Source: Candidatus Omnitrophota bacterium
GTDB lineage: Bacteria > Omnitrophota > Gorgyraeia > Gygaellales > Profunditerraquicolaceae
Assembly: GCA_026387355.1 (NCBI GenBank)
Contig: JAPLLW010000012.1
Location: 62,612 to 126,611 of the forward strand
Length of the DNA: 64,000 nucleotides
Reading direction: 5' to 3'
Shown here: one piece after another, positions 21,618 through 63,270 of the stretch
Layout: every line of letters begins with the position of its first letter
Numbering within the stretch: position 1 is the stretch's first letter
Notes under the pieces: model-generated
What the model was told of the DNA's origin: nothing
Seen by the model: only the letters and a program-made list of their open reading frames with translations
The model's database searches: none
Made by a program: the position numbers and the translations under genes

Positions 21618-22493
21618 ATGAAGACCGAGGTAAAGAAGATTGATAGTAACGTAAGAGAGCTTAATGTAGAGATAAGTGGAGATGTAGTAAAAAATAAATT
21701 TGAAGATGTCTTTAAGCGCATAGGCTCGGAGGCAAAGGTTCCGGGATTTAGACCGGGGAATGCCCCGCGTGATATTTTAGAAAAGAATTATGCCGCACTT
21801 GCGCATGAGCAGGTATTAAAGGAGCTGGTTCCGGATATCTATAATGAGGCGATTAATAAAGAAGGGCTTGATGTTATTGAGATGCCCGAGATAACTGATG
21901 TGAAGCTTGAGAGGGAGCTACTCTCTTTTAAGGCAAAGGTTGAAGTAAGTCCTGAAATCAGCGTTAAAGACTATAAGGGTATTAAAATAAATTATAAGAG
22001 TGAAAATGTTTCTGCTGACGAAATTAAGCGCGCCGTTGATTCAATAAAAGAGTCGCGCAAGTTTGAGAAAATAGATGATAACCTGGCCAAGTCTTTAGGC
22101 TATCCGAATATGGCACAGCTAGAGAAGGTGCTAGAGAAGCAGATCTTTGTGCAGAAAGAAAATTCAGAGCGTCAAAAATCAGAGAGTAATATTATTGAAA
22201 GCCTGGTTAAGGGGCTGGATTTCAAGCTTCCGCAGTCTCTGGTTAAGCGCCAGCTTGAGGATATGGTCAGGCAGGCTAAAGTGGATTTAGCTTTAAAAGG
22301 AATGAGCCGCGAAAAAATAGATGAACAGGAGAAAAAGATTCGCGAGGAATTAATCCCTGAATCAGAGAAACAGGTTAAAGTTTATTTGGTGCTTGCGGCA
22401 ATAGCTAAGAAGGAGAATGTCGCCCAGGATGAACATATGCCGCGAAAAGTTATGGAGTTTATCATGAGGGAGGCAGATTGGAATATAAGTTAA
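21618..22493 (+). CDS. tig: Trigger factor lacking the central PPIase (FKBP) domain
   Basis: The N-terminal ribosome-binding domain carries the 'GFRPGNAP' signature, and a C-terminal chaperone arm is present. Only 291 aa remain, with no FKBP-type segment, and clpP follows directly. Confidence 0.75.
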
Positions 22494-23128
22494 ATAAAAA
22501 ACATAACAGGGAGGTTGGAATGGAGATTAAAAATCAGACTTTAGTCCCTATGGTTATTGAGCAGACCTCAAGAGGCTATGAGCGCGCCTATGATATCTAT
22601 TCAAGGCTTTTAAAAGATCGCATACTTTTTATAGGTACTCCCATAGATGACTATGTCGCCAATTTAATTATTGCTCAGATTTTATTTTTGCAGATGGAAG
22701 ATGTAGGTAAAGATATAAATGTATATATTAATTCTCCGGGAGGCTCAGTTACCGCCGGTCTTGCTATATACGATACTATGCAGTTTGTGAAATGCGATAT
22801 CGCTACTTATTGCGTAGGGCAGGCCTCAAGCATGGGGGCACTTTTATTGTGCGCAGGGACTAAGGGAAAACGCCAGTCTCTTCCTAACTCAAGGGTGATG
22901 ATCCATCAACCCTGGGGTGGCGTGCAGGGACAGGCTGAAGATATCTCCCGTCATGCCCAGGAGATCTTAAAGATGCGCGATAGGATAAATGAAATACTTG
23001 CTCAGCACACAGGGCAATCATTGGAAAAGGTGCAAAAGGATACTGATAGGGATTATTTTATGTCTGCTGCTGAAGCTAAGGCCTATGGGCTCGTTGACGA
23101 AGTAATTATCCCGAATAAAAAGAAATAA
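22478..23128 (+). CDS. clpP: ATP-dependent Clp protease proteolytic subunit
   Basis: '[20 protein letters not shown]', the catalytic Ser in '[11 protein letters not shown]', and 'MIHQP'. Confidence 0.95.
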
Positions 23129-23182
23129 GAATTTTATTTTCTAAATATAATATACCTTAAAAGATAGGAGGATTTCTTTGTC

Positions 23183-24319
23183 ATGAGGAAAAATTATCTA
23201 CTTACCCCAGGACCTACACCTCTACCACCGCAAGTAATGGAGGCGATGGCTAGGCCGATTATTCATCATCGCACCCCGCAATTTCAGGAGATTTTAATTG
23301 AGGCAACCGAAGGGATTAAATATGTCTTTCAGACTTCCGGTGATGTATTTATTCTAGCCTCTTCTGGTACCGGCGCGATGGAGGCCGCAGTAATTAATCT
23401 TCTTTCGCCCGGTGATACCGCACTTTTGATACAGGGAGGAAAATTCGGGGAGAGATGGACTGAGATCTGCAAGGCTTACGGGATTAATGCCGAAGTCCTG
23501 GATGTGGAATGGGGCAAGGCAGTAGATTTTAAAGATATAGAGAAAAGATTAAAAGCTAACCCTAATATTAAGGTTGTATTCACTACGCATTGTGAGACTT
23601 CAACAGGTGTGGTTAATGATATCGAGGCAATTGGTAATGTTGTTAAGAATACGCATGCAGTTTTAGTGGTTGATGCCATAAGCGGACTAGGAGCTATTGA
23701 TTTAAAGACCGATGCCTGGGGTTGTGATCTAGTAGTTTCCGGTTCACAGAAAGGTTTAATGCTTCCGCCTGGTTTAGGTTTTATCTCGGTAAGCGCTAAA
23801 GCCTGGAAGATGATCGAAGCTTCAAAGTCAGTGCGTTATTACTTTGATTTAAGGAAGTCAAAGAAGGCTATTGATAAGAATGACACTCCTTTTACTCCGG
23901 CAATCACTCTGATCATTGCCCTTGTTGAGGCACTTAGGATTATAAAGCAAGATGGTTTAGAGAATATTTTTAGACGTCATAGAAAAATGGCTGACGCAAC
24001 GCGCGCAGCAATGAAGGCATTAGGGCTTGAATTATTTGCACCCACCGCTGCTTCGGATGTTGTAACATCAGTTAAAGCGCCTGTTGGAATCGATGGAGAA
24101 AAACTGGTTAAAACTATGCGCGATACCTACGGAGTAACCATTGCCGGAGGGCAAGATGAGTTAAAAGGTAAAGTCTTTAGAATTGCACATATGGGTTTTA
24201 TCGAAGAGTTCGACATTATCGCCGGTATTTCATGTCTTGAGAAGGTGCTGACACAAATGGGTTATAAATTTCAAATGGGTTCGGGGGTTAAAGCAGCAGA
24301 AGAAATATTTCTGAAATAA
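23183..24319 (+). CDS. Class-V aminotransferase (AGXT / archaeal-type phosphoserine aminotransferase family)
   Basis: 'LLTPGPTPLPPQVMEAM' is the class-V aminotransferase N-terminus. The PLP-Lys region reads 'SGSQKGLM'. The gene sits adjacent to serA. Confidence 0.8.
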   Translation: MRKNYLLTPGPTPLPPQVMEAMARPIIHHRTPQFQEILIEATEGIKYVFQTSGDVFILASSGTGAMEAAVINLLSPGDTALLIQGGKFGERWTEICKAYGINAEVLDVEWGKAVDFKDIEKRLKANPNIKVVFTTHCETSTGVVNDIEAIGNVVKNTHAVLVVDAISGLGAIDLKTDAWGCDLVVSGSQKGLMLPPGLGFISVSAKAWKMIEASKSVRYYFDLRKSKKAIDKNDTPFTPAITLIIALVEALRIIKQDGLENIFRRHRKMADATRAAMKALGLELFAPTAASDVVTSVKAPVGIDGEKLVKTMRDTYGVTIAGGQDELKGKVFRIAHMGFIEEFDIIAGISCLEKVLTQMGYKFQMGSGVKAAEEIFLK

Positions 24320-24333
24320 ATAAGGAGTAACCG

Positions 24334-25920
24334 ATGATTAAAATCTTAGTGAGTGATCCACTCTCAGACGAAGGATTAAAAATTCTTAAAGATATTAAAG
24401 AATTCCAAGTGGACATTAAGACTGATTTAAAGCCGGAAGAACTAAAGTCAGTTATTAAGGATTATGATGCTCTTTTAGTAAGAAGTGCTACTAAGGTCAA
24501 TAAAGACCTGCTCGATGCGGCGGTAAAGCTTAAGGTAGTAGGCCGGGCAGGTGTTGGGCTGGATAATGTTGATCTCGGTGCTGCAACTCAAAAAGGCGTT
24601 ATTGTTATGAATACGCCCGGAGGAAACACTGTTTCTACGGCAGAACACGCGCTAAGTCTGATACTTTCGCTTTCGCGCAATATACCTCAGGCAAACGCTT
24701 CGATGAAGAAGGCTGAATGGAAACGTTCAAAGTTTATGGGGGTTGAGCTTTACGCGAAAACTCTTGGGATTATAGGTTTTGGCAGGATCGGGAGAGAAGT
24801 GGCAAAAAGGGCTTTATCTTTTGGGATGATTGTAGAGGCATATGACCCTTTCTTATCGCGCGAAGTTGCGGAATCGCTGGGTATTAAAATTGTCGAGCTA
24901 AAAGAATTATTTCAAGCCGCAGATTATATTACTATGCATACCCCGATGACCGAAGAAACAAAACATATGATATCTGCCGAGCAGTTTAAGATTATGAAGA
25001 AAGGCGTGCGTATTATTAATTGCGCAAGAGGAGGGATTATTGATGAGCAGGCTTTGATAGCTGCAGTTAAAGAAGGAAAGGTCGCGGGGGCTGCGTTGGA
25101 TGTCTTTGAGAAAGAGCCGTTAACTGCTGACAGTGAACTTTTGAAACTCGATAATATAATTCTTACTCCGCATTTAGGCGCATCTACCGAAGAGGCCCAG
25201 GTTAATGTGGCTATTGAAGTAGCTGAGATTGTGCGCGATGCGCTTTTAGGTAGAGGGATCCGTAACGCTGCTAATTATCCGTGCTTAGAGGCCGAAGTTA
25301 GTAAGATGCTTGATCCTTACATGGCACTAGCCGAGAAATTAGGCGCTTTTTGTTCTCAACTTGTCGAAGGCAGATTTCAAGAATTAGATATAAGTTATAG
25401 CGGAGAGATTGCCGCTTATGATTTAAGTCCTCTGACTATGGCGATCTCTAAGGGGCTACTTTCTCCAATACTAAAAGAAACGGTAAATTTTATAAATGCC
25501 GTTTCTTTGGCCAAAGAACGGGGAATTAAAATTAAAGAAGCAAAATCTTCTAAGGAGAATGAATTCGTTAATCTTATCCAGCTACAGATAAAGACTGATA
25601 AAGAGACAAGAATGGTATCTGGTACTCTCTCGAGTAATAAGAAAACAAGGATTGTAAAGATTGACGAATACTATGTAGATCTTGCGCCTACCGACGAGAT
25701 GATTTATATTGAAAATTGGGATAGGCCTGGTCTTATCGGAAGTTTAGGGACGTTTTTAGGCAAGCACAATATAAATATTGCGGCTATGACTTTTGGTCGG
25801 GACAATCCGGGTGGAAAGGCAATTAGCGTTTTGACCGTAGATAGCCCTGTTTCTGCAGAGACTATTGAGCAGATTAAGAAATTAGAGAATATTCTCACTG
25901 TTAAAGGCATAAGGTTATGA
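24334..25920 (+). CDS. serA: D-3-phosphoglycerate dehydrogenase with a C-terminal ACT domain
   Basis: The 2-hydroxyacid dehydrogenase NAD motif 'GIIGFGRIGREVA', the catalytic 'CARGGIID...TPHLGASTEEA', and the 528-aa length with ASB/ACT domains. Confidence 0.9.
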   Translation: MIKILVSDPLSDEGLKILKDIKEFQVDIKTDLKPEELKSVIKDYDALLVRSATKVNKDLLDAAVKLKVVGRAGVGLDNVDLGAATQKGVIVMNTPGGNTVSTAEHALSLILSLSRNIPQANASMKKAEWKRSKFMGVELYAKTLGIIGFGRIGREVAKRALSFGMIVEAYDPFLSREVAESLGIKIVELKELFQAADYITMHTPMTEETKHMISAEQFKIMKKGVRIINCARGGIIDEQALIAAVKEGKVAGAALDVFEKEPLTADSELLKLDNIILTPHLGASTEEAQVNVAIEVAEIVRDALLGRGIRNAANYPCLEAEVSKMLDPYMALAEKLGAFCSQLVEGRFQELDISYSGEIAAYDLSPLTMAISKGLLSPILKETVNFINAVSLAKERGIKIKEAKSSKENEFVNLIQLQIKTDKETRMVSGTLSSNKKTRIVKIDEYYVDLAPTDEMIYIENWDRPGLIGSLGTFLGKHNINIAAMTFGRDNPGGKAISVLTVDSPVSAETIEQIKKLENILTVKGIRL

Positions 25921-27665
25921 AGAAAAGTATTACATTGATCCTATTGATTACTGTTTTAGCGCTTTTCCTTGCGATTACAAAAAAGGCTAATGCTAAGAAT
26001 GGCGAACTTACCATTATTTATACCGGCGAGACACATGCTATGCTTTATCCTTGCAATTGCCCTATTGAGCCGGATGGTGGAGTCGCAAGGAGGGCAACCT
26101 TAATTAAACGATTAAAGCTTGAGTCTCCCGATGTCCTAATTCTAGATTCGGGTAATTTTTCTGCCGGCGGCCCACTTGATCAGCAAACCCTGAATGCACA
26201 GATTGATAAACAACGTACGAGCGTTTATCTTAACGCTATGGAGCTAATGAAATATGATGCTGTAGCGCTTAGCGATGATGAATTTAATTTCGGTAAGGAT
26301 TACCTTGAAGCAAGTATAGGCAAGGTAAAATTGAATTTCCTTAGCGCTAATTTAAGGGCTAAAGGAAGCCTACCCTATATAATTAAAGGAGCCGCGGGGT
26401 TTAAGATTGGGATTATCGGTTTGACTAATGCTGCGGCAAAAAATAAAGCAGGCGATTTAAAGTTTGTTGAGCCAAAGAGTGCCCTGGCAGAGACTGTTAC
26501 TTCGCTTAAGAAAAAAGGCGTACAGTTAATAATCCTATTAAGTAATCTTGGAGAGCCTGAAGATTTAATTCTTTTAGAAAAGGTTCCCGATATTGATGTT
26601 ATTATTGATGGACATTCTCATGAAAAGGACGCCGTCCCATACGTTAAGGTCGGTAAAACATTTATTTTAAGGCCATCCTGGCAGGGTCGTCGGCTCTGTA
26701 AAGCTAGTTTTACAATTAAGAATAATAAGTTGGAAAGTCTGGGAGTTGATGAGATAAGGGTATCGGACAAGACTACCGATGATGCTGCAATACAGACTAT
26801 ATTGCCGCGCTGTTTTTCCGATGAAAATTGTAAAAAGACCGGATTTATTGGCTCATGTGAAAACGCCGCAAGCATTAATTCCTCCTGTTCATTTAAGGAG
26901 GCTAAAAAGATCCTCTTGACGGTAATTACATCCAAGGAGTGCTTAACCTGTAATACCGAACCGGTAGTCAGCTATTTTAAGAAGCAGTTCGCCGGGCTCG
27001 TTGTTTCATATATATATTACCCGGATAAAAATGCAGTTAAGCTTATTAAAGATCTCAAATTAATCGGTTTACCTGTCTACTTAGTAAGCAAAGAAGCAGA
27101 GGGAGAAAGTAATTTTGACAGTTTAAAGGTAAATTTGGAAGATAAAGGGTCAGCCTATTTATTAAAACCCGAGGTGGGGGGGTTAACTTATTTTATTGGT
27201 CGTGAAAAGATTGAAGGAAAATTGGATTTATTTCTTAGTCTCTATGATAAAAATACGGTTGCTTTATTGGATATGATAAGGGAATTTAACCCGGTATTAC
27301 ATTTTCTTGTTTTTGCAGATCAAGGTTCGATAAGTTCGCCAGGTGGCCTGGCTGAGACGGAAGAAGATGAACGTGCAGTCTGCATTCAGAAATATTATCC
27401 TAAATATTTCTGGCCGTATCTAACTTGTCGAGCAAACAATATCAATAGTTCTTGGTGGGAGGATTGTCTTTCTGGTGCCGATAATGAAAAGATCAAATCT
27501 TGCGCCAGGGGAGCTGAAGGCAGGGCATTGTTAAAAGAAAATTGTGGCTTAAATAAAGAACTTAGAATAATGTATGGCCCAACTTATCTATTGAATAATC
27601 AGGAAATCTTTACTTCTAATGGTGTCCTCTCTAGAGATGAGTTTAAGAGAATAATCAGGAGGTGA
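25917..27665 (+). CDS. Secreted multi-domain protein: a degenerate 5'-nucleotidase/metallophosphatase-like N-terminal domain fused to two Cys-rich thioredoxin/DsbA-like domains
   Basis: A signal peptide 'MKKSITLILLITVLALFLAITKKANA' is present. 'DDEFNFGKDY' and 'IDGHSH' resemble the 5'-nucleotidase 'GNHEFD' and 'GGHSH' motifs, but the first metal-binding motifs look degenerate. The C-terminal regions have CxxC-like pairs ('CLTCN', 'CRANN...C...C') and a DsbA-like composition. Confidence 0.45.
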   Translation: MKKSITLILLITVLALFLAITKKANAKNGELTIIYTGETHAMLYPCNCPIEPDGGVARRATLIKRLKLESPDVLILDSGNFSAGGPLDQQTLNAQIDKQRTSVYLNAMELMKYDAVALSDDEFNFGKDYLEASIGKVKLNFLSANLRAKGSLPYIIKGAAGFKIGIIGLTNAAAKNKAGDLKFVEPKSALAETVTSLKKKGVQLIILLSNLGEPEDLILLEKVPDIDVIIDGHSHEKDAVPYVKVGKTFILRPSWQGRRLCKASFTIKNNKLESLGVDEIRVSDKTTDDAAIQTILPRCFSDENCKKTGFIGSCENAASINSSCSFKEAKKILLTVITSKECLTCNTEPVVSYFKKQFAGLVVSYIYYPDKNAVKLIKDLKLIGLPVYLVSKEAEGESNFDSLKVNLEDKGSAYLLKPEVGGLTYFIGREKIEGKLDLFLSLYDKNTVALLDMIREFNPVLHFLVFADQGSISSPGGLAETEEDERAVCIQKYYPKYFWPYLTCRANNINSSWWEDCLSGADNEKIKSCARGAEGRALLKENCGLNKELRIMYGPTYLLNNQEIFTSNGVLSRDEFKRIIRR

Positions 27666-27671
27666 TCTAAG

Positions 27672-30183
<2,512 letters not shown>

Positions 30184-30231
30184 CTTTTGTCCCTTTGTTA
30201 TAATTAAGTTTCAAAAAAGGAGAGGTGATTT

Positions 30232-30888
30232 ATGAAAAGATTATTTCAGGCGGTATTTTTAATTTCTGCTTGCGTTTCTTTAGTGGGTTGCACTTTTGTT
30301 TTTCAGAGCGGCAGGCGTTCAGATAAAGAGACGATCCAGAATCTCTCTAATCAACTAGATGAATTAAGCCAGGCCAAAAAACTCCTTGAGGAAAGATTAG
30401 GCCAAGAGATTTCCGATAAACAGGTTAAGTTGCAGATGATGGAAAAGGGGTTGGTTATTACAGTTGTCGGAGACCTACTTTTTGATTCAGGTAAAGCTAA
30501 AATTAGAAGCGAGGCCTATCCTCTCTTGGATAAAGTTTCCGTGGTATTAAAAGATAATATGGCTGGATTTAATGTCGGTATAGAAGGTTACACAGATGAT
30601 GTCCCGATTAAACATTCAAGCTGGAAGTCGAATTGGGAGTTATCTTCAGCGCGCGCTTTAAGCGTACTGCATTACTTGGTAAAAGATGAGGGTGTCGCTC
30701 CACAGAGGCTTTCTGCAATTGGTTTTGGTGAATACCGTTCAGTCGCTTCAAATGATACCAGGGAAGGACGTAAATTAAACCGCAGGGTTGAGATTGTTAT
30801 TCAGCCAAAGGTCGCTAAGGTAAGTCAGGGTAGGGGGGTTGCTAGCGAAGAGAGAGCCTTGATTGAGCCAAAAGAAAACCTTAAGTAA
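30232..30888 (+). CDS. OmpA/MotB-domain lipoprotein (peptidoglycan-associated)
   Basis: A lipoprotein signal with the lipobox 'LVGC', a coiled-coil linker, and a C-terminal OmpA-like domain ('NRRVEIVI'). Confidence 0.8.
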   Translation: MKRLFQAVFLISACVSLVGCTFVFQSGRRSDKETIQNLSNQLDELSQAKKLLEERLGQEISDKQVKLQMMEKGLVITVVGDLLFDSGKAKIRSEAYPLLDKVSVVLKDNMAGFNVGIEGYTDDVPIKHSSWKSNWELSSARALSVLHYLVKDEGVAPQRLSAIGFGEYRSVASNDTREGRKLNRRVEIVIQPKVAKVSQGRGVASEERALIEPKENLK

Positions 30889-30909
30889 TACTAAAAGGTA
30901 AAAATAAAT

Positions 30910-31290
30910 ATGGAAGAGAATATTAAGGGTAGGGCTATTATTATATTAGCAATATTGACTTTATTGCTTTTTATTCTCAATATAGGTTCGTGCGCTAGTT
31001 CTTTTAGCCAGGGTTCTGCTCGTAGAAAAGAGATGGCTCAACGTATGGACCTGGAAGAAAAGTTTGGTAAGCTTAATCAGGAGAAGGCAGCGGTCATTGA
31101 TAAATTAAAGGTAAAAGATAAAGAGCTGGACGATGAAAAAACAGCGCATATGGTTTCGAAAAAAGCGCTGCTTCAGGAACAGATGATTAGTCAGAGCCTG
31201 AAAGATGATTTACAAAAACTTACTAAGGTTAAGGAATCATTGGAAGCGCAGCTTAATCAAGTATTGTCTGGTAAGAAGGCCAAGAAATGA
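30910..31290 (+). CDS. Small membrane-anchored coiled-coil protein
   Basis: One N-terminal TM helix is followed by a charged heptad-like sequence. No recognisable family. It lies directly downstream of the OmpA-like gene. Confidence 0.45.
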   Translation: MEENIKGRAIIILAILTLLLFILNIGSCASSFSQGSARRKEMAQRMDLEEKFGKLNQEKAAVIDKLKVKDKELDDEKTAHMVSKKALLQEQMISQSLKDDLQKLTKVKESLEAQLNQVLSGKKAKK

Positions 31291-31326
31291 TTTAGGCTTT
31301 ATTAAAAGAACAGCCTAAAGTTCTTT

Positions 31327-31351
31327 AAAAGGGATCACATCCCTTTTTTTA
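31327..31351 (+). terminator. Rho-independent terminator after the coiled-coil ORF
   Basis: The stem AAAAGGGAT / ATCCCTTTT with a cac loop is followed by a T-run. Confidence 0.5.
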
Positions 31352-31470
31352 TTAATGAGGACATAATTTTCGCAGCAACAGAGAAGTAGGTTATCTGTAC
31401 GAATTAATGGCTTGTTTAATTAATTACGCAAACCATTGTAAATCGCAAAATTTATTACAGGAGGTGCTCT

Positions 31471-32433
31471 ATGGCAGCATTAGCGCGAGCAAAAGCAAAA
31501 AAGAAAGTCCTGAAGAAAGCAATTTTATCCAGCAAAAAGTTAAAAATAGTTAAATCTAAGGAGCGTTTACAGAAAGTTCTTAAAAAAGAGATTCCTGGAG
31601 CTCAGGAGGTTACTGTGGGTACGGCTAAATTTTCTCATCCTGAAACAAGCCGGATGCATAGAGGGCTTCCGCAAGAGCTCCCCTTTACCTATGGTCAAGA
31701 CAGGATGGTTCTTTTAGTGCGCGATCCCTGGTGGCTATTTACTTTCTGGGAAGTGAGACATGAGACCGTAGAGAAATTAAAGAATGAACTTAAGGATGAT
31801 TTTTATAAGGCCAGGCGCTTGCTTAGGGTATATGATGTAACTAATATTATTTTTAACGGAAACAATGCTAATAGATTCTTTGATATAGAGATAAATGAAT
31901 TTGCCAGCAGCTGGTATATTGATACATCAGGCCCGGGAAGATCTTGGTGCGTGGATCTAGGATTAAGATTACCCAATGGTAAATTTATAACAATTTTACG
32001 TTCTAACGTAGTGCATACTCCGCTCGACGGTCCATCGTCTATTACTGATGAGGAGTGGATGATTCCGGATGATCTCTTCGCAAGGCTTTATGGTATGGGT
32101 TTTGGTTTAGGAAGAAGTTCTCCCGTAGGTAAAAGTTGGATCGAGAGAGCGATTAGCTCTCCGGGTATAGCTTCGATGGCAAGCCCCGTAAGGAAACCTA
32201 AGCAACGCGGTTTTTGGCTAAAGGTTGACTGCGAATTAATTGTCTATGGCGCAACTGAACCGGATGCAAAAGTTACGGTTCAGGCTAAACCCATAAGCTT
32301 AAGGCCGGACGGTACATTTACTTTACGTTTTGCATTACCTGATGGCAAACAGGTTATTCCGGTTAAGTCGGTATCCGCTGATTGCGTTGAAGAGCGTGTA
32401 ATTACGCCAATTGTAGAGAGGGAAACCAAGTAA
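31471..32433 (+). CDS. DUF4912-family protein (a GH57-associated partner)
   Basis: 'MVLLVRDPWWLFTFWEV' is a conserved DUF4912 block. It is immediately upstream of, and translationally coupled to, a GH57 gene. Confidence 0.6.
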   Translation: MAALARAKAKKKVLKKAILSSKKLKIVKSKERLQKVLKKEIPGAQEVTVGTAKFSHPETSRMHRGLPQELPFTYGQDRMVLLVRDPWWLFTFWEVRHETVEKLKNELKDDFYKARRLLRVYDVTNIIFNGNNANRFFDIEINEFASSWYIDTSGPGRSWCVDLGLRLPNGKFITILRSNVVHTPLDGPSSITDEEWMIPDDLFARLYGMGFGLGRSSPVGKSWIERAISSPGIASMASPVRKPKQRGFWLKVDCELIVYGATEPDAKVTVQAKPISLRPDGTFTLRFALPDGKQVIPVKSVSADCVEERVITPIVERETK

Positions 32434-34013
32434 TGCATAAAGGTTATCTTTGTTTAGTCCTGCATGGCCATCTGCCCTACGTGCGTCATCCAGAGCATGA
32501 AGACTTCTTGGAGGAGGATTGGCTTTATGAAGCGATTACTGAGACTTATGTCCCGTTAATTTTGGCATTCGAGAGACTGGTTAATGACAAGGTAAAATTC
32601 CGCATTACCATGACTTTGAGCCCCACCTTAATCTCGATGTTAAGTGATTCCCTGCTTCAGGATCGTTATCTAAAACATATTAATAGGTTAATAGAGCTGG
32701 CCCACAAAGAGATAGAACGCACCCGCTGGCAACCGGAGTTTCATGAACTTGCTAAGATGTACCTTTCTGAGTTTTCTAAAGCCAGAGATACATTTTTAAG
32801 ATATAACCGTAATTTAATTAATGCTTTTAAGTATTTTCAGGATATAGGGAGATTAGAAGTAATTACCTGCGGCGCAACTCATGGATATTTTCCATTGATG
32901 AATGCCTGCAAGGAATCAGTTAAGGCCCAAGTTAGAGTTGCGGTAAGCCATTACGAAAGCGTTTTTGGTAGAAAGCCCAAAGGCATATGGCTTCCTGAGT
33001 GTGGTTATCATCCGGGACACGATGAGATATTAAAAGAGTCAGGCATTAGTTATTTCTTCACTGATTCTCACGGCATATTGCACGCAACCCCGCGTCCTAA
33101 ATACGGGGTCTTTGCTCCGGTTTATTGTAAGGGAACGGGGGTAGCTTGTTTTGCAAGAGACCTCGAATCTTCAAAGCAGGTCTGGTCTTCGATAGAGGGT
33201 TACCCAGGAGATTATAATTACCGTGAGTTTTATCGCGACATTGGTTTTGATCTTGAGTATGATTATATAAAGCCGTATATACATCCGGACGGAGTTAGAA
33301 TTAATACCGGGATAAAATATTATCGTATTACCGGTACAGGGAATAATAAAGAGGCGTATGTTTCGCGTTGGGCTCAGGATAGGGCTGCAGAGCATGCGGG
33401 GAACTTTATGTTTAACCGCCAGAAACAGATAGATTATCTTTATGGCCTTATGCAAAAAAAGCCGATAATCGTTTCTCCTTATGATGCCGAATTATTCGGC
33501 CACTGGTGGTACGAAGGCCCTATGTGGATTGAATATTTAATCAGAAAGATAGCTTTTGATCAGGACGAGATAAGCCTTGCTACGGCTAGTGATTATTTAG
33601 AGGAGAACCCGCGGAATCAGGTGGTTACTCCGTCGTATTCCAGCTGGGGTTGGAAGGGTTACAGCGAGATGTGGTTGCAAGGCCAGAATGACTGGATTTA
33701 TCGGCACCTATATGCTGCATCAGGCAGAATGACTGAGCTAGCTAAAAGCTATCCTAACGAAAATGGTTTAGTAAATAGGGCGCTGAATCAGGCCTTGCGC
33801 GAGCTATTATTAGCCCAGAGTTCTGATTGGGCTTTTATATTAGGAACCGGAACACATACTGAATATGCGCTACGTAGGACCAAGGATCATCTTTTGAAGT
33901 TTAACCGCCTTTATGAAGATATAAAGTCAAACTCAATCGACCAGGAGTGGCTTGCGGATATTGAGTATAAAGACAATATTTTCCCCGGGATAGATTATAA
34001 AACACACCAGTGA
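32433..34013 (+). CDS. Glycoside hydrolase family 57 enzyme (1,4-alpha-glucan branching enzyme-type)
   Basis: 'LCLVLHGHLPYVRHPE' is the GH57 N-terminal catalytic region. 'WLPECGYHPG' and 'ELFGHWWYEG' are conserved GH57 motifs. It is 526 aa. Confidence 0.85.
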   Translation: MHKGYLCLVLHGHLPYVRHPEHEDFLEEDWLYEAITETYVPLILAFERLVNDKVKFRITMTLSPTLISMLSDSLLQDRYLKHINRLIELAHKEIERTRWQPEFHELAKMYLSEFSKARDTFLRYNRNLINAFKYFQDIGRLEVITCGATHGYFPLMNACKESVKAQVRVAVSHYESVFGRKPKGIWLPECGYHPGHDEILKESGISYFFTDSHGILHATPRPKYGVFAPVYCKGTGVACFARDLESSKQVWSSIEGYPGDYNYREFYRDIGFDLEYDYIKPYIHPDGVRINTGIKYYRITGTGNNKEAYVSRWAQDRAAEHAGNFMFNRQKQIDYLYGLMQKKPIIVSPYDAELFGHWWYEGPMWIEYLIRKIAFDQDEISLATASDYLEENPRNQVVTPSYSSWGWKGYSEMWLQGQNDWIYRHLYAASGRMTELAKSYPNENGLVNRALNQALRELLLAQSSDWAFILGTGTHTEYALRRTKDHLLKFNRLYEDIKSNSIDQEWLADIEYKDNIFPGIDYKTHQ

Positions 34014-62505: not shown

Positions 62506-63270
62506 ATGAAGGCCAAGCAAACCCACGGAGAAAACTTGAAAAAAACAATCCTGATTTTAAGCTGTTTTTTATTTCTACTTGCTACTTATATCTTTGCAGC
62601 AGATGATCTTGGGGATAAAAGAAATAAAGCGCTTACTGATCTACAGCTTCAAGCCAGGGATTATCGCGAGCAAGGTTTAAAGATGCAGGAAGTAGGGGAT
62701 TTGGATGCTGCCACGAAGCTATATCAGAAATCAGAACAGCTTGATCCATCCTATGCGGTTGTCTGTAATGATCTGGGCATTATTTATGAAGCTAAAGGCG
62801 AGATAGATAGGGCAGAAGAAAGTTATCTTAAGTCTATAAATATCGACCCGCATTATTTGAGCGCTTATAGCAACTTGGCTATTCTTTATGAAGGGGAGCG
62901 TAAATTAGGTAAGGCTGCTTTTTGTTGGAAGAGAAGGGTTGATTTAGGGGATCCCAAAGACCCCTGGACTTTAAAAGCTAGGCAGCGTTTAGAGGATATC
63001 CGTCTTGCTTTATCTCCTAGGCCTTCCTCAGAGACTCAGGAAAGAGAAGTTGTCGGTCTTATGAAAGATGTTACAAACGAGAAATACGTTGTAAGGCATG
63101 ATGATAAGGCATTCGCCAGGAAGAAATTCCAGGAGGCAAAATTTAGCTATGGTAAAGAAGATTACGCTACGGCCTTACAAGATGCATCAGATGCTCAGTT
63201 TCTGGACCCGGATAATAAAGAAATAGATGCTTTTATTGTGAAAACCCAGAATAGGGCGTTAACACAATAA
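62506..63270 (+). CDS. Secreted or membrane-anchored tetratricopeptide-repeat protein
   Basis: An N-terminal hydrophobic segment and TPR-like repeats ('AATKLYQKSEQLDPSYAVVCNDLGIIYEAKGEIDRAEESYLKSINIDPHY...'). Confidence 0.7.
   Translation: MKAKQTHGENLKKTILILSCFLFLLATYIFAADDLGDKRNKALTDLQLQARDYREQGLKMQEVGDLDAATKLYQKSEQLDPSYAVVCNDLGIIYEAKGEIDRAEESYLKSINIDPHYLSAYSNLAILYEGERKLGKAAFCWKRRVDLGDPKDPWTLKARQRLEDIRLALSPRPSSETQEREVVGLMKDVTNEKYVVRHDDKAFARKKFQEAKFSYGKEDYATALQDASDAQFLDPDNKEIDAFIVKTQNRALTQ

Follow-up and report, generated by a model that had tools for sequence, protein, structure and literature searches.

An exported Omnitrophota protein that joins a nucleotidase-like Cys-x-Cys domain to thioredoxin-fold domains: a probable thiol-disulfide oxidoreductase of the cell envelope

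The stretch of DNA analyzed here, 64,000 nucleotides of contig JAPLLW010000012.1 from a Candidatus Omnitrophota bacterium (positions 62,612 to 126,611 of the forward strand; hereafter the window), carries between serA and a gene for an HMGL-like/HCS_D2 synthase an open reading frame (ORF) for a secreted protein of 582 amino acids (Table 1). From the N-terminus, the protein consists of a signal peptide, a 5'-nucleotidase-like domain, a four-cysteine mini-domain, a thioredoxin domain and a GILT/DsbA-like domain. An initial annotation made from the letters alone had placed this gene between serA and a LeuA-family gene, in agreement with the neighbors found here, and had proposed a redox protein built upon an inactive phosphoesterase scaffold. 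The ORF proved to be real, as did the signal peptide, which is kept in homologues. The assumption of an inactive scaffold fared less well. The N-terminal domain is probably not inert, since it contains an invariant C46-x-C48 motif that had been overlooked and whose second position alternates between cysteine and selenocysteine in relatives. As a general class, an exported thiol-disulfide oxidoreductase is the likely assignment for this protein.

Table 1. The gene of the 582-amino-acid protein and the features it encodes, in window coordinates
Feature	Position	Strand	Basis
Complete ORF, 582 amino acids plus stop, ATG start	25917..27665	+	Translation of the window
Sec-type signal peptide, residues 1-26, cleavage predicted after ANA	25917..25994	+	Hydrophobic core and A-x-A site kept in 119 homologues
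5'-Nucleotidase/metallophosphatase-fold domain, residues 28-295, with non-canonical motif residues	25998..26801	+	phmmer, Foldseek, NCBIfam NF041198
C46-N-C48 loop that directly follows the former motif I; proposed redox center of the N-domain	26052..26060	+	Translation CNC
Four-Cys beta-hairpin mini-domain ("knot"), residues 297-328, with C299, C305, C314 and C324	26805..26900	+	Conservation and model
Thioredoxin-fold domain, residues 330-425, with C342-L-T-C345 and cis-Pro candidate P386	26904..27191	+	
GILT/DsbA-like thioredoxin-fold domain with helical insert, residues 433-582, with cis-Pro candidate P555	27213..27662	+	

The identical 582-residue protein has been deposited from a Candidatus Omnitrophica metagenome-assembled genome under the name "hypothetical protein," and a search gave over 794 homologues, so a chance ORF is excluded. 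The best 120 homologues are all full length and share 51-60% identity with the window protein, and their source labels, where given, are Omnitrophota. The gene is translationally coupled on both sides. Its ATG overlaps the stop codon of serA (ATGA), and its final codons, AGGAGGTGA (AGG AGG TGA), double as the Shine-Dalgarno sequence of the next gene, the HMGL-like one, which starts with TTG. The product is predicted to be exported through the Sec pathway by means of a cleavable signal peptide. The N-termini of the homologues are hydrophobic and end in AxA-type sites (AYA/K), residue A26 is nearly invariant, and no twin-arginine motif was found in the signal peptides of 119 homologues, a pattern more in keeping with a thiol enzyme of the envelope than with a Tat substrate loaded with a cofactor. 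The full-length structural model has a predicted local distance difference test (pLDDT) score of 88, and 12 cysteines are invariant or nearly so among the 120 homologues. Two antisense ORFs lie inside or overlap the gene, at 26618-26935 (- strand, 105 amino acids) and 27588-27833 (- strand, 81 amino acids). Both are most likely spurious because they have non-ATG starts and are located within a conserved coding region.

The N-terminal half of the protein is clearly related to the 5'-nucleotidases. In a phmmer search of PDB sequences, residues 23-236 align to the Thermus 5'-nucleotidase 2z1a (E 3e-20), with "alsddefnfg" opposite "algnhefdlg" and "iidghshe" opposite "ivgghsht," which are the pairings the initial annotation had proposed. 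Foldseek agrees, superposing approximately 300 N-terminal residues on the N-domains of CD73, UshA and SoxB (E ~4e-20), and the alpha/beta sandwich fold is present with motifs I-V in order. The window protein therefore resembles the 5'-nucleotidase/UshA/CD73/SoxB enzymes in the fold and motif order of its N-domain and also in its periplasmic or extracellular location. In contrast to those enzymes, the residues of its dinuclear site are unconserved, the catalytic His is an Asp, and thioredoxin-fold domains take the place of the C-terminal substrate-binding domain (PF02872). Pfam gave no match to PF02872 in the window protein, and the structural matches to 5'-nucleotidases end at about residue 300. 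An intact SoxB- or UshA-type nucleotidase with its C-terminal substrate domain, the outcome that would have overturned the initial annotation, was thus not found.

The loss of the metal site is apparent when the ligands are compared with those of UshA. The first Asp has become E38, H40 is kept, the bridging Asp has become N80, the Asn has become D120, the catalytic His has become D121, the following His has become N210, and H233 and H235 are kept. As a result, the motifs read E-T-H, G-N, S-D-D-E, N and G-H-S-H instead of the canonical DxH, GD, GNH(E/D), H and GHxH. The earlier proposal that the metal ligands had been replaced holds for E38, N80, D120, D121 and N210. However, motifs III and V had been counted as matches, and motif III is itself altered. 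The ligand positions, whose conservation had been suggested as a check, are variable among the 120 homologues: position 38 is E, S, D, Q or T, position 80 is G, N, S or A, position 210 is H, N or Q, position 233 is H, Y or R, and position 235 is mostly R. A wider set of representatives was assembled from the 150 best sequences of an exhaustive search, one per 50%-identity cluster, and residues were counted by hidden Markov model column. Just 2 of the 120 representative N-domain rows have D, H, D, N, H, H, H, the canonical set. The N-domain thus retains the 5'-nucleotidase fold without a conserved dinuclear metal site.

These observations bear directly on the possibility that the protein is an atypical phosphoesterase, nucleotidase or SoxB-like hydrolase, with a mono- or di-metal site assembled from E38, H40, N80, D120, N210 and H233 and with the thioredoxin and GILT-like domains in an accessory or regulatory role. 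The similarity to 5'-nucleotidases and SoxB is significant in both sequence and fold, and some homologue records are named "metallophosphatase" or "5'-nucleotidase." Moreover, H40, H233 and H235 are retained, and the other ligand positions hold carboxylate or amide side chains. Such a hydrolase is nevertheless improbable. Within the family the bridging Asp is replaced by G, N, S or A, the catalytic His is an Asp, motifs IV and V are variable, and the domain that supplies the nucleotide pocket is absent. The Pfam Metallophos model scores 16.3 bits, which is under its gathering score of 21.5. Selection acts instead on the cysteines.

The cysteines in question include the pair that follows the former motif I. 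Cys is found at both positions 46 and 48 in all 120 homologues, and CxC is present in 113 of 126 representative N-domains. The best NCBIfam match of the window protein is NF041198, "UshA-like (seleno)protein, PCGU" (E 6.5e-43), and the Cys-x-Cys/Sec motif (Sec, selenocysteine) that this family carries after the first strand of the UshA-like domain is represented by C46-N-C48. The score of 147.1 bits is below the curated cutoff of 275, the match covers profile positions 3-367 of 519, and no CxxCH that would indicate a tetraheme domain occurs anywhere in the window protein. Because of the low score and the missing heme domain, the protein is best regarded, on its sequence, as a homologue and not a member of NF041198. 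Both kinds of protein are exported, both have a homologous nucleotidase-fold N-domain with degenerate canonical metal ligands, and neither has an assigned function. They also share the CxC/Sec loop after the first strand, which reads "YPCNCPIEPDGGVARR" in the window protein and "EPCGUPKNPLGGLARR" in the relatives. They differ in that true NF041198 members end in a tetraheme cytochrome, whereas the window protein has the knot, thioredoxin and GILT-like domains. The architecture had at first been described as unrecognized. For the N-domain this is incorrect, given that its type is catalogued as NF041198, but the combination with thioredoxin and GILT-like domains is indeed not covered by any curated model. 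NF041198 is equivalent to the "COG0737 UshA-like" CxU selenoprotein family catalogued by Zhang and Gladyshev (2008; PMC2398784), which appears again in later reviews (PMC13188914), in no case with a function.

To test the link with selenocysteine, one genome per species was scanned with an alignment of NF041198-type proteins, and the loci were translated with TGA as U. The scan recovered 80 NF041198-type loci from the Myxococcota, Desulfobacterota, Planctomycetota, Acidobacteriota, Nitrospinota, Verrucomicrobiota and other phyla. Among 64 loci, the second position of the motif is encoded by an in-frame UGA in 14 and by a Cys codon in 50. The selenocysteine of the relatives aligns with C48 of the window protein in three pairwise alignments (best E 9e-32). 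When the NF041198-type N-domains are placed on the profile of the window family, C46 is present in 43 of 43 and Cys or selenocysteine occupies position 48 in 43 of 43 (29 C, 14 U). The core common to both families comprises C46, C/U48, G54, G55, R/K58, G79, D/E122 and N145. Since it includes the pair at 46 and 48 and not H40, D120 or D121, the conserved functional element is the CxC/CxU loop rather than the old metal site. Selenoproteins use selenocysteine almost exclusively at redox-catalytic positions. No selenocysteine form was found among 270 Omnitrophota-type sequences. In six of the selenocysteine-form genes (L010, L013, L015, L017, L018 and L023), a hairpin with a GGUCU loop lies 12-30 nucleotides after the in-frame TGA, the placement expected of a bacterial selenocysteine insertion sequence. 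The hairpin is uninformative, however, because it overlaps the codons of a conserved Leu-Gly-Gly-Leu (LGGL) and its folding energy does not set it apart from the Cys loci.

The domains joined to the CxC/CxU domain provide further evidence for its chemistry. The proteins P0271 (296 bits) and P0273 (276 bits) pass the NF041198 cutoff over the full profile and consist of a signal peptide, the CxC/CxU domain and a tetraheme cytochrome c554-like domain (Pfam Cytochrome_C554, four CxxCH). Fusions of about 1200 amino acids contain both kinds of partner: a CxC domain, a GILT-like domain, the knot, a thioredoxin domain, another GILT-like domain, a further CxC domain, to which NF041198 gives 376 bits, and four CxxCH. 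Giant exported fusions of about 1000-1200 amino acids, in which two CxC nucleotidase-like domains are joined to GILT-like, knot and thioredoxin modules and to four CxxCH heme motifs, include P0142 (L091:215-3838), P0170, P0171 and P0222. The repeated joining of this domain to two electron-transfer chemistries, together with the use of selenocysteine, argues that the N-domain is redox catalytic. The neighborhoods of the 64 NF041198-type loci are mostly unconserved, and the largest cluster of neighbors is found at 7 of them. A DsbA-like CGHC protein is encoded directly downstream of cytochrome-fused relatives at 6 of the 64 loci (L078, L079, L044 and three more), and a DUF1573-type protein directly upstream at 5 (L052, L067 and others). 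At the single long-form locus examined (L090; P0145, 793 amino acids), a gene of the AhpC-TSA/Redoxin family lies two genes downstream (L090:6419-6877). This single case may hint at a link with thiol peroxidases.

The same loop could also be explained by metal handling. The CxC/CxU loop, H40 and the D120/D121/E122 cluster would then bind Cu, Zn, Fe or Ni for periplasmic sequestration, delivery or tolerance, much as in ScsC/ScsB copper tolerance, and the thioredoxin domain would keep the ligand cysteines reduced. This explanation seems unlikely, given that only C46 and C/U48 are universal. H40, D120 and D121 are unconserved in the NF041198-type sister family and drift among the short-form representatives. 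Additionally, the tetraheme cytochrome of the sister proteins indicates electron transfer rather than metal buffering, and the neighborhoods examined contain no conserved metal transporters.

The C-terminal half was modeled separately (residues 295-582, pLDDT 92). Fold comparison finds a resemblance to thioredoxin and to the GILT/DsbA/ScsC folds, as the initial annotation had anticipated in calling this half thioredoxin/DsbA-like. Pfam gave no match for the C-terminal half or its sub-domains even at an E-value of 10. The knot reads CCCC in 128 of 130 representatives, its four cysteines are invariant among the 120 homologues, and its beta-hairpins are modeled at pLDDT 84-92. Its cysteines probably form two structural disulfides. 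In the thioredoxin domain, the CxxC, which is the CLTC noted earlier, starts helix 1, and the invariant Pro386 precedes strand 3. The GILT/DsbA-like domain is a thioredoxin fold with an inserted helical domain, which holds the conserved C489, C504, C517 and C529. The "C..C..C near the end" of the initial annotation corresponds to real cysteines (C504, C517, C529 and C543), although at spacings of 11-13 residues it was loose shorthand.

In contrast to GILT (PF03227), DsbA, ScsC and BdbD, the second thioredoxin-fold domain has no active-site CxxC. The corresponding residues are S441-L-Y-D444, with the Ser kept in 90% or more of the close homologues. To judge by the motifs, only the first of the two thioredoxin-fold domains retains a redox motif, a refinement of the earlier description. 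Relatives of about 770 amino acids possess an extra GILT-like domain with a single Cys (C-P-Y-G) at the column of Ser441 (MSQCPYG), and they usually lack the CxxC of the thioredoxin domain. One relative, P0234, aligns to family profile positions 290-564 and matches Pfam GILT with an E-value of 1.7e-21. Because the window protein has no direct Pfam match, the GILT homology of its C-terminal half is shown only transitively, through P0234. Proteins of about 255 amino acids (P0226 and similar) were considered as stand-alone versions of the C-terminal module and rejected, P0226 being a contig-edge fragment of a normal gene.

With so many cysteines, the protein might also be a non-catalytic envelope protein, either a pseudoenzyme or one with a structural or binding role, in which all cysteines are held in structural disulfides. 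Exported proteins are often rich in disulfides. The cysteines of the knot and of the helical insert look structural, the GILT-like domain has no active-site Cys, and the local operon consists of housekeeping genes without redox partners. A purely structural role is nevertheless very doubtful. It is hard to square with selenocysteine in place of C48 in 14 independent relatives, and catalytic thioredoxins classically combine a conserved cis-Pro with a CxxC that opens helix 1, as is seen here. Recurrent fusion or adjacency to cytochromes and to a membrane protein with two cysteines points the same way. Taken together, the universal Cys/selenocysteine pair, the selenocysteine substitution and the couplings to cytochromes and a thiol relay weigh against both the phosphoesterase and the non-catalytic explanations.

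The membrane protein was recognized through P0257, a fusion of the thioredoxin-CxxC and GILT-like module with DUF1573 and a polytopic membrane domain. The membrane family, of about 384 amino acids, has 2,361 matches and occurs in Omnitrophota. Invariant cysteines are confined to a CGC in DUF1573 and to two transmembrane (TM) segments (GINPC and ExVCTGQ), each of which has a single one. In 3 of 3 sampled cases, the DUF1573-TM gene lies 4-10 nucleotides upstream of a gene for a protein of 583-591 amino acids, and these downstream genes encode full-length orthologues of the window protein (45, 38 and 42% identity). The order at the sampled loci is serA, an optional small ORF, DUF1573-TM, the orthologue, the HMGL-like gene and PurA. 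The two genes are adjacent at L093-L097 and L178, while at L007 the P0257 fusion occupies the slot and replaces both. Members of the family include P0303 (L093:6001-7155), P0379 (L096:6001-7155) and P0306 (L178:5001-6194). The small ORF between serA and the DUF1573-TM gene (L093:5785-6000 and L178:4732-4983) encodes 71-83 amino acids and has no significant Pfam match.

The membrane domain is also found fused to an exported thioredoxin/glutaredoxin-like CxxC domain. The partner gives a weak NCBIfam match to ArsG, two JGI records name it "CcdA" and one "thiol-disulfide isomerase," and its DUF1573 part matches the NCBIfam OS_HP2 (seleno)protein below the cutoff. Classing the membrane domain of P0257 as DsbD/CcdA was considered and dropped as unsupported by Pfam and the PDB, the likeness being one of behavior only. 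By analogy, the DUF1573-TM family is a candidate for a new thiol-disulfide conduit across the membrane. The initial annotation had seen no functional context for the gene. This is true within the window, but divergent orthologues are paired with or fused to the two-Cys membrane protein.

The genes that flank the window gene encode a class-V aminotransferase and SerA (with all four of its Pfam domains) on one side and the HMGL-like/HCS_D2 synthase, PurA and an OmpA-family protein on the other. The full string at 21618-34013 consists of trigger factor, ClpP, the class-V aminotransferase, SerA, the gene described here, the HMGL-like synthase, PurA and the OmpA-family protein, and it ends with a small ORF, DUF4912 and a GH57 branching enzyme. 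The string is kept across Omnitrophota relatives (L001, L003, L005 and L098-L177) in which the protein itself is only about 50-58% identical. Conservation among such diverged relatives indicates that the local gene order is a matter of synteny across the lineage and does not mark a functional operon. The position after serA and a class-V aminotransferase gene raised the possibility of a SerB-like phosphoserine phosphatase, which was rejected in view of the export signal, the degenerate ligands and the general housekeeping synteny. Across the whole window (1-64000), all plausible genes of at least 110 amino acids are on the + strand and tightly packed, with frequent overlaps of start and stop codons. 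At +0.13 to +0.29, the GC skew stays positive from end to end, and the 64 kb is thus a co-directional block.

For an exported thiol-disulfide oxidoreductase, the following mechanism may be proposed. The C46-x-C48 loop would be the catalytic center that meets the substrate, cycling between dithiol and disulfide, or selenylsulfide in the selenocysteine forms. The thioredoxin domain, with C342-x-x-C345 and cis-Pro386, would pass electrons to C46 and C48 or take them from there. The GILT/DsbA-like domain, which has Ser441 in place of its active-site Cys, would have no redox role and would serve in binding or structure, as the b-type domains do in protein disulfide isomerase (PDI), and the four-Cys mini-domain would be a disulfide-stapled linker. 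Reducing power would most likely arrive through the DUF1573 CGC membrane protein with its two TM cysteines, acting in the manner of CcdA, DsbD or ScsB. Supply by such a membrane relay would imply a reductase or an isomerase-type enzyme. The substrate might be a protein disulfide or sulfenate, a peroxide or a sulfoxide; alternatively, the old phosphate pocket might hold an oxyanion of a chalcogen or of arsenic.

A more specific and rather speculative form of this proposal is that the metallophosphatase fold has itself been turned into a Cys/selenocysteine redox catalyst. The ancestral phosphate cleft would hold a tetrahedral oxyanion or oxidized chalcogen, which would be reduced through the CxC/CxU loop. 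Examples may include selenite, arsenate, thiosulfate, sulfite or a sulfoxide. The result would be a new class of periplasmic terminal reductase powered by a CcdA-like thiol relay in Omnitrophota and by a tetraheme cytochrome in NF041198. A parallel exists in the thioredoxin-coupled arsenate reductase ArsC, which evolved from the low-molecular-weight tyrosine phosphatases. This specific version is considered unlikely.

Among known systems, the closest functional counterparts of the window protein would be periplasmic reductases or isomerases that depend on DsbD or ScsB and have a thioredoxin domain attached. DsbC/DsbG, ScsC and the Neisseria PilB (Trx-MsrA-MsrB) are reductases that depend on DsbD, CcdA or ScsB, and the window protein appears to share with them the joining of an exported thioredoxin-fold CxxC domain to a Cys-based catalytic domain. 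In its relatives the resemblance extends to the pairing or fusion with a polytopic membrane protein that possesses two TM cysteines and a periplasmic Cys domain. To our knowledge, no DsbD/CcdA/ScsB-dependent system uses the metallophosphatase fold as its catalytic domain.

Several observations weigh against an oxidoreductase of this type. Unlike the established systems, the membrane partner matches no DsbD/CcdA model, and searches of its membrane domain against Pfam and PDB sequences, DsbD and CcdA included, returned no match. The CcdA/DsbD-like assignment consequently depends on the Cys pattern and fusion behavior. Likewise, the pairing is missing at this locus in the clade of the window protein, with the partner gene absent from the site in 62 of 62 assessable loci, and the DUF1573-TM partner is absent from the 64-kb window. 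The thioredoxin CxxC is missing in about 45% of the representative rows (72 of 132 have both cysteines), and the rows without it are mostly long forms that bear the CPYG Cys instead. The CxC loop is the least confident region of the model, with pLDDT below 50. A mononuclear metal site may also persist in the window protein because the metal-capable side chains of E38, H40, N80, D120, D121, N210, H233 and H235 remain. Finally, the searched literature contains catalogue listings of these proteins and no characterized member or redox activity.

In conclusion, a nucleotidase-like CxC/CxU domain that has been present in selenoprotein catalogues since 2008 without a proposed function now offers three handles. 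First, its conserved core is the Cys/selenocysteine loop rather than the metal site. Second, the domain always comes connected to an electron-transfer module, whether hemes, thioredoxin/GILT-like domains or both. Third, the Omnitrophota form is genetically tied to a previously unclassified membrane protein with two cysteines. The thioredoxin/GILT-like architecture, the near-ubiquity and fixed synteny of the gene in Omnitrophota and the link to the membrane protein are undescribed in the literature searched. If the protein is indeed a thiol-disulfide oxidoreductase, it would be a rare case of the re-use of a hydrolase metallo-fold as a thiol or selenol redox enzyme. Moreover, the gene is nearly ubiquitous in the Omnitrophota and set in a conserved string of housekeeping genes, and it would then represent a core envelope redox pathway of this widespread and largely uncultured phylum.

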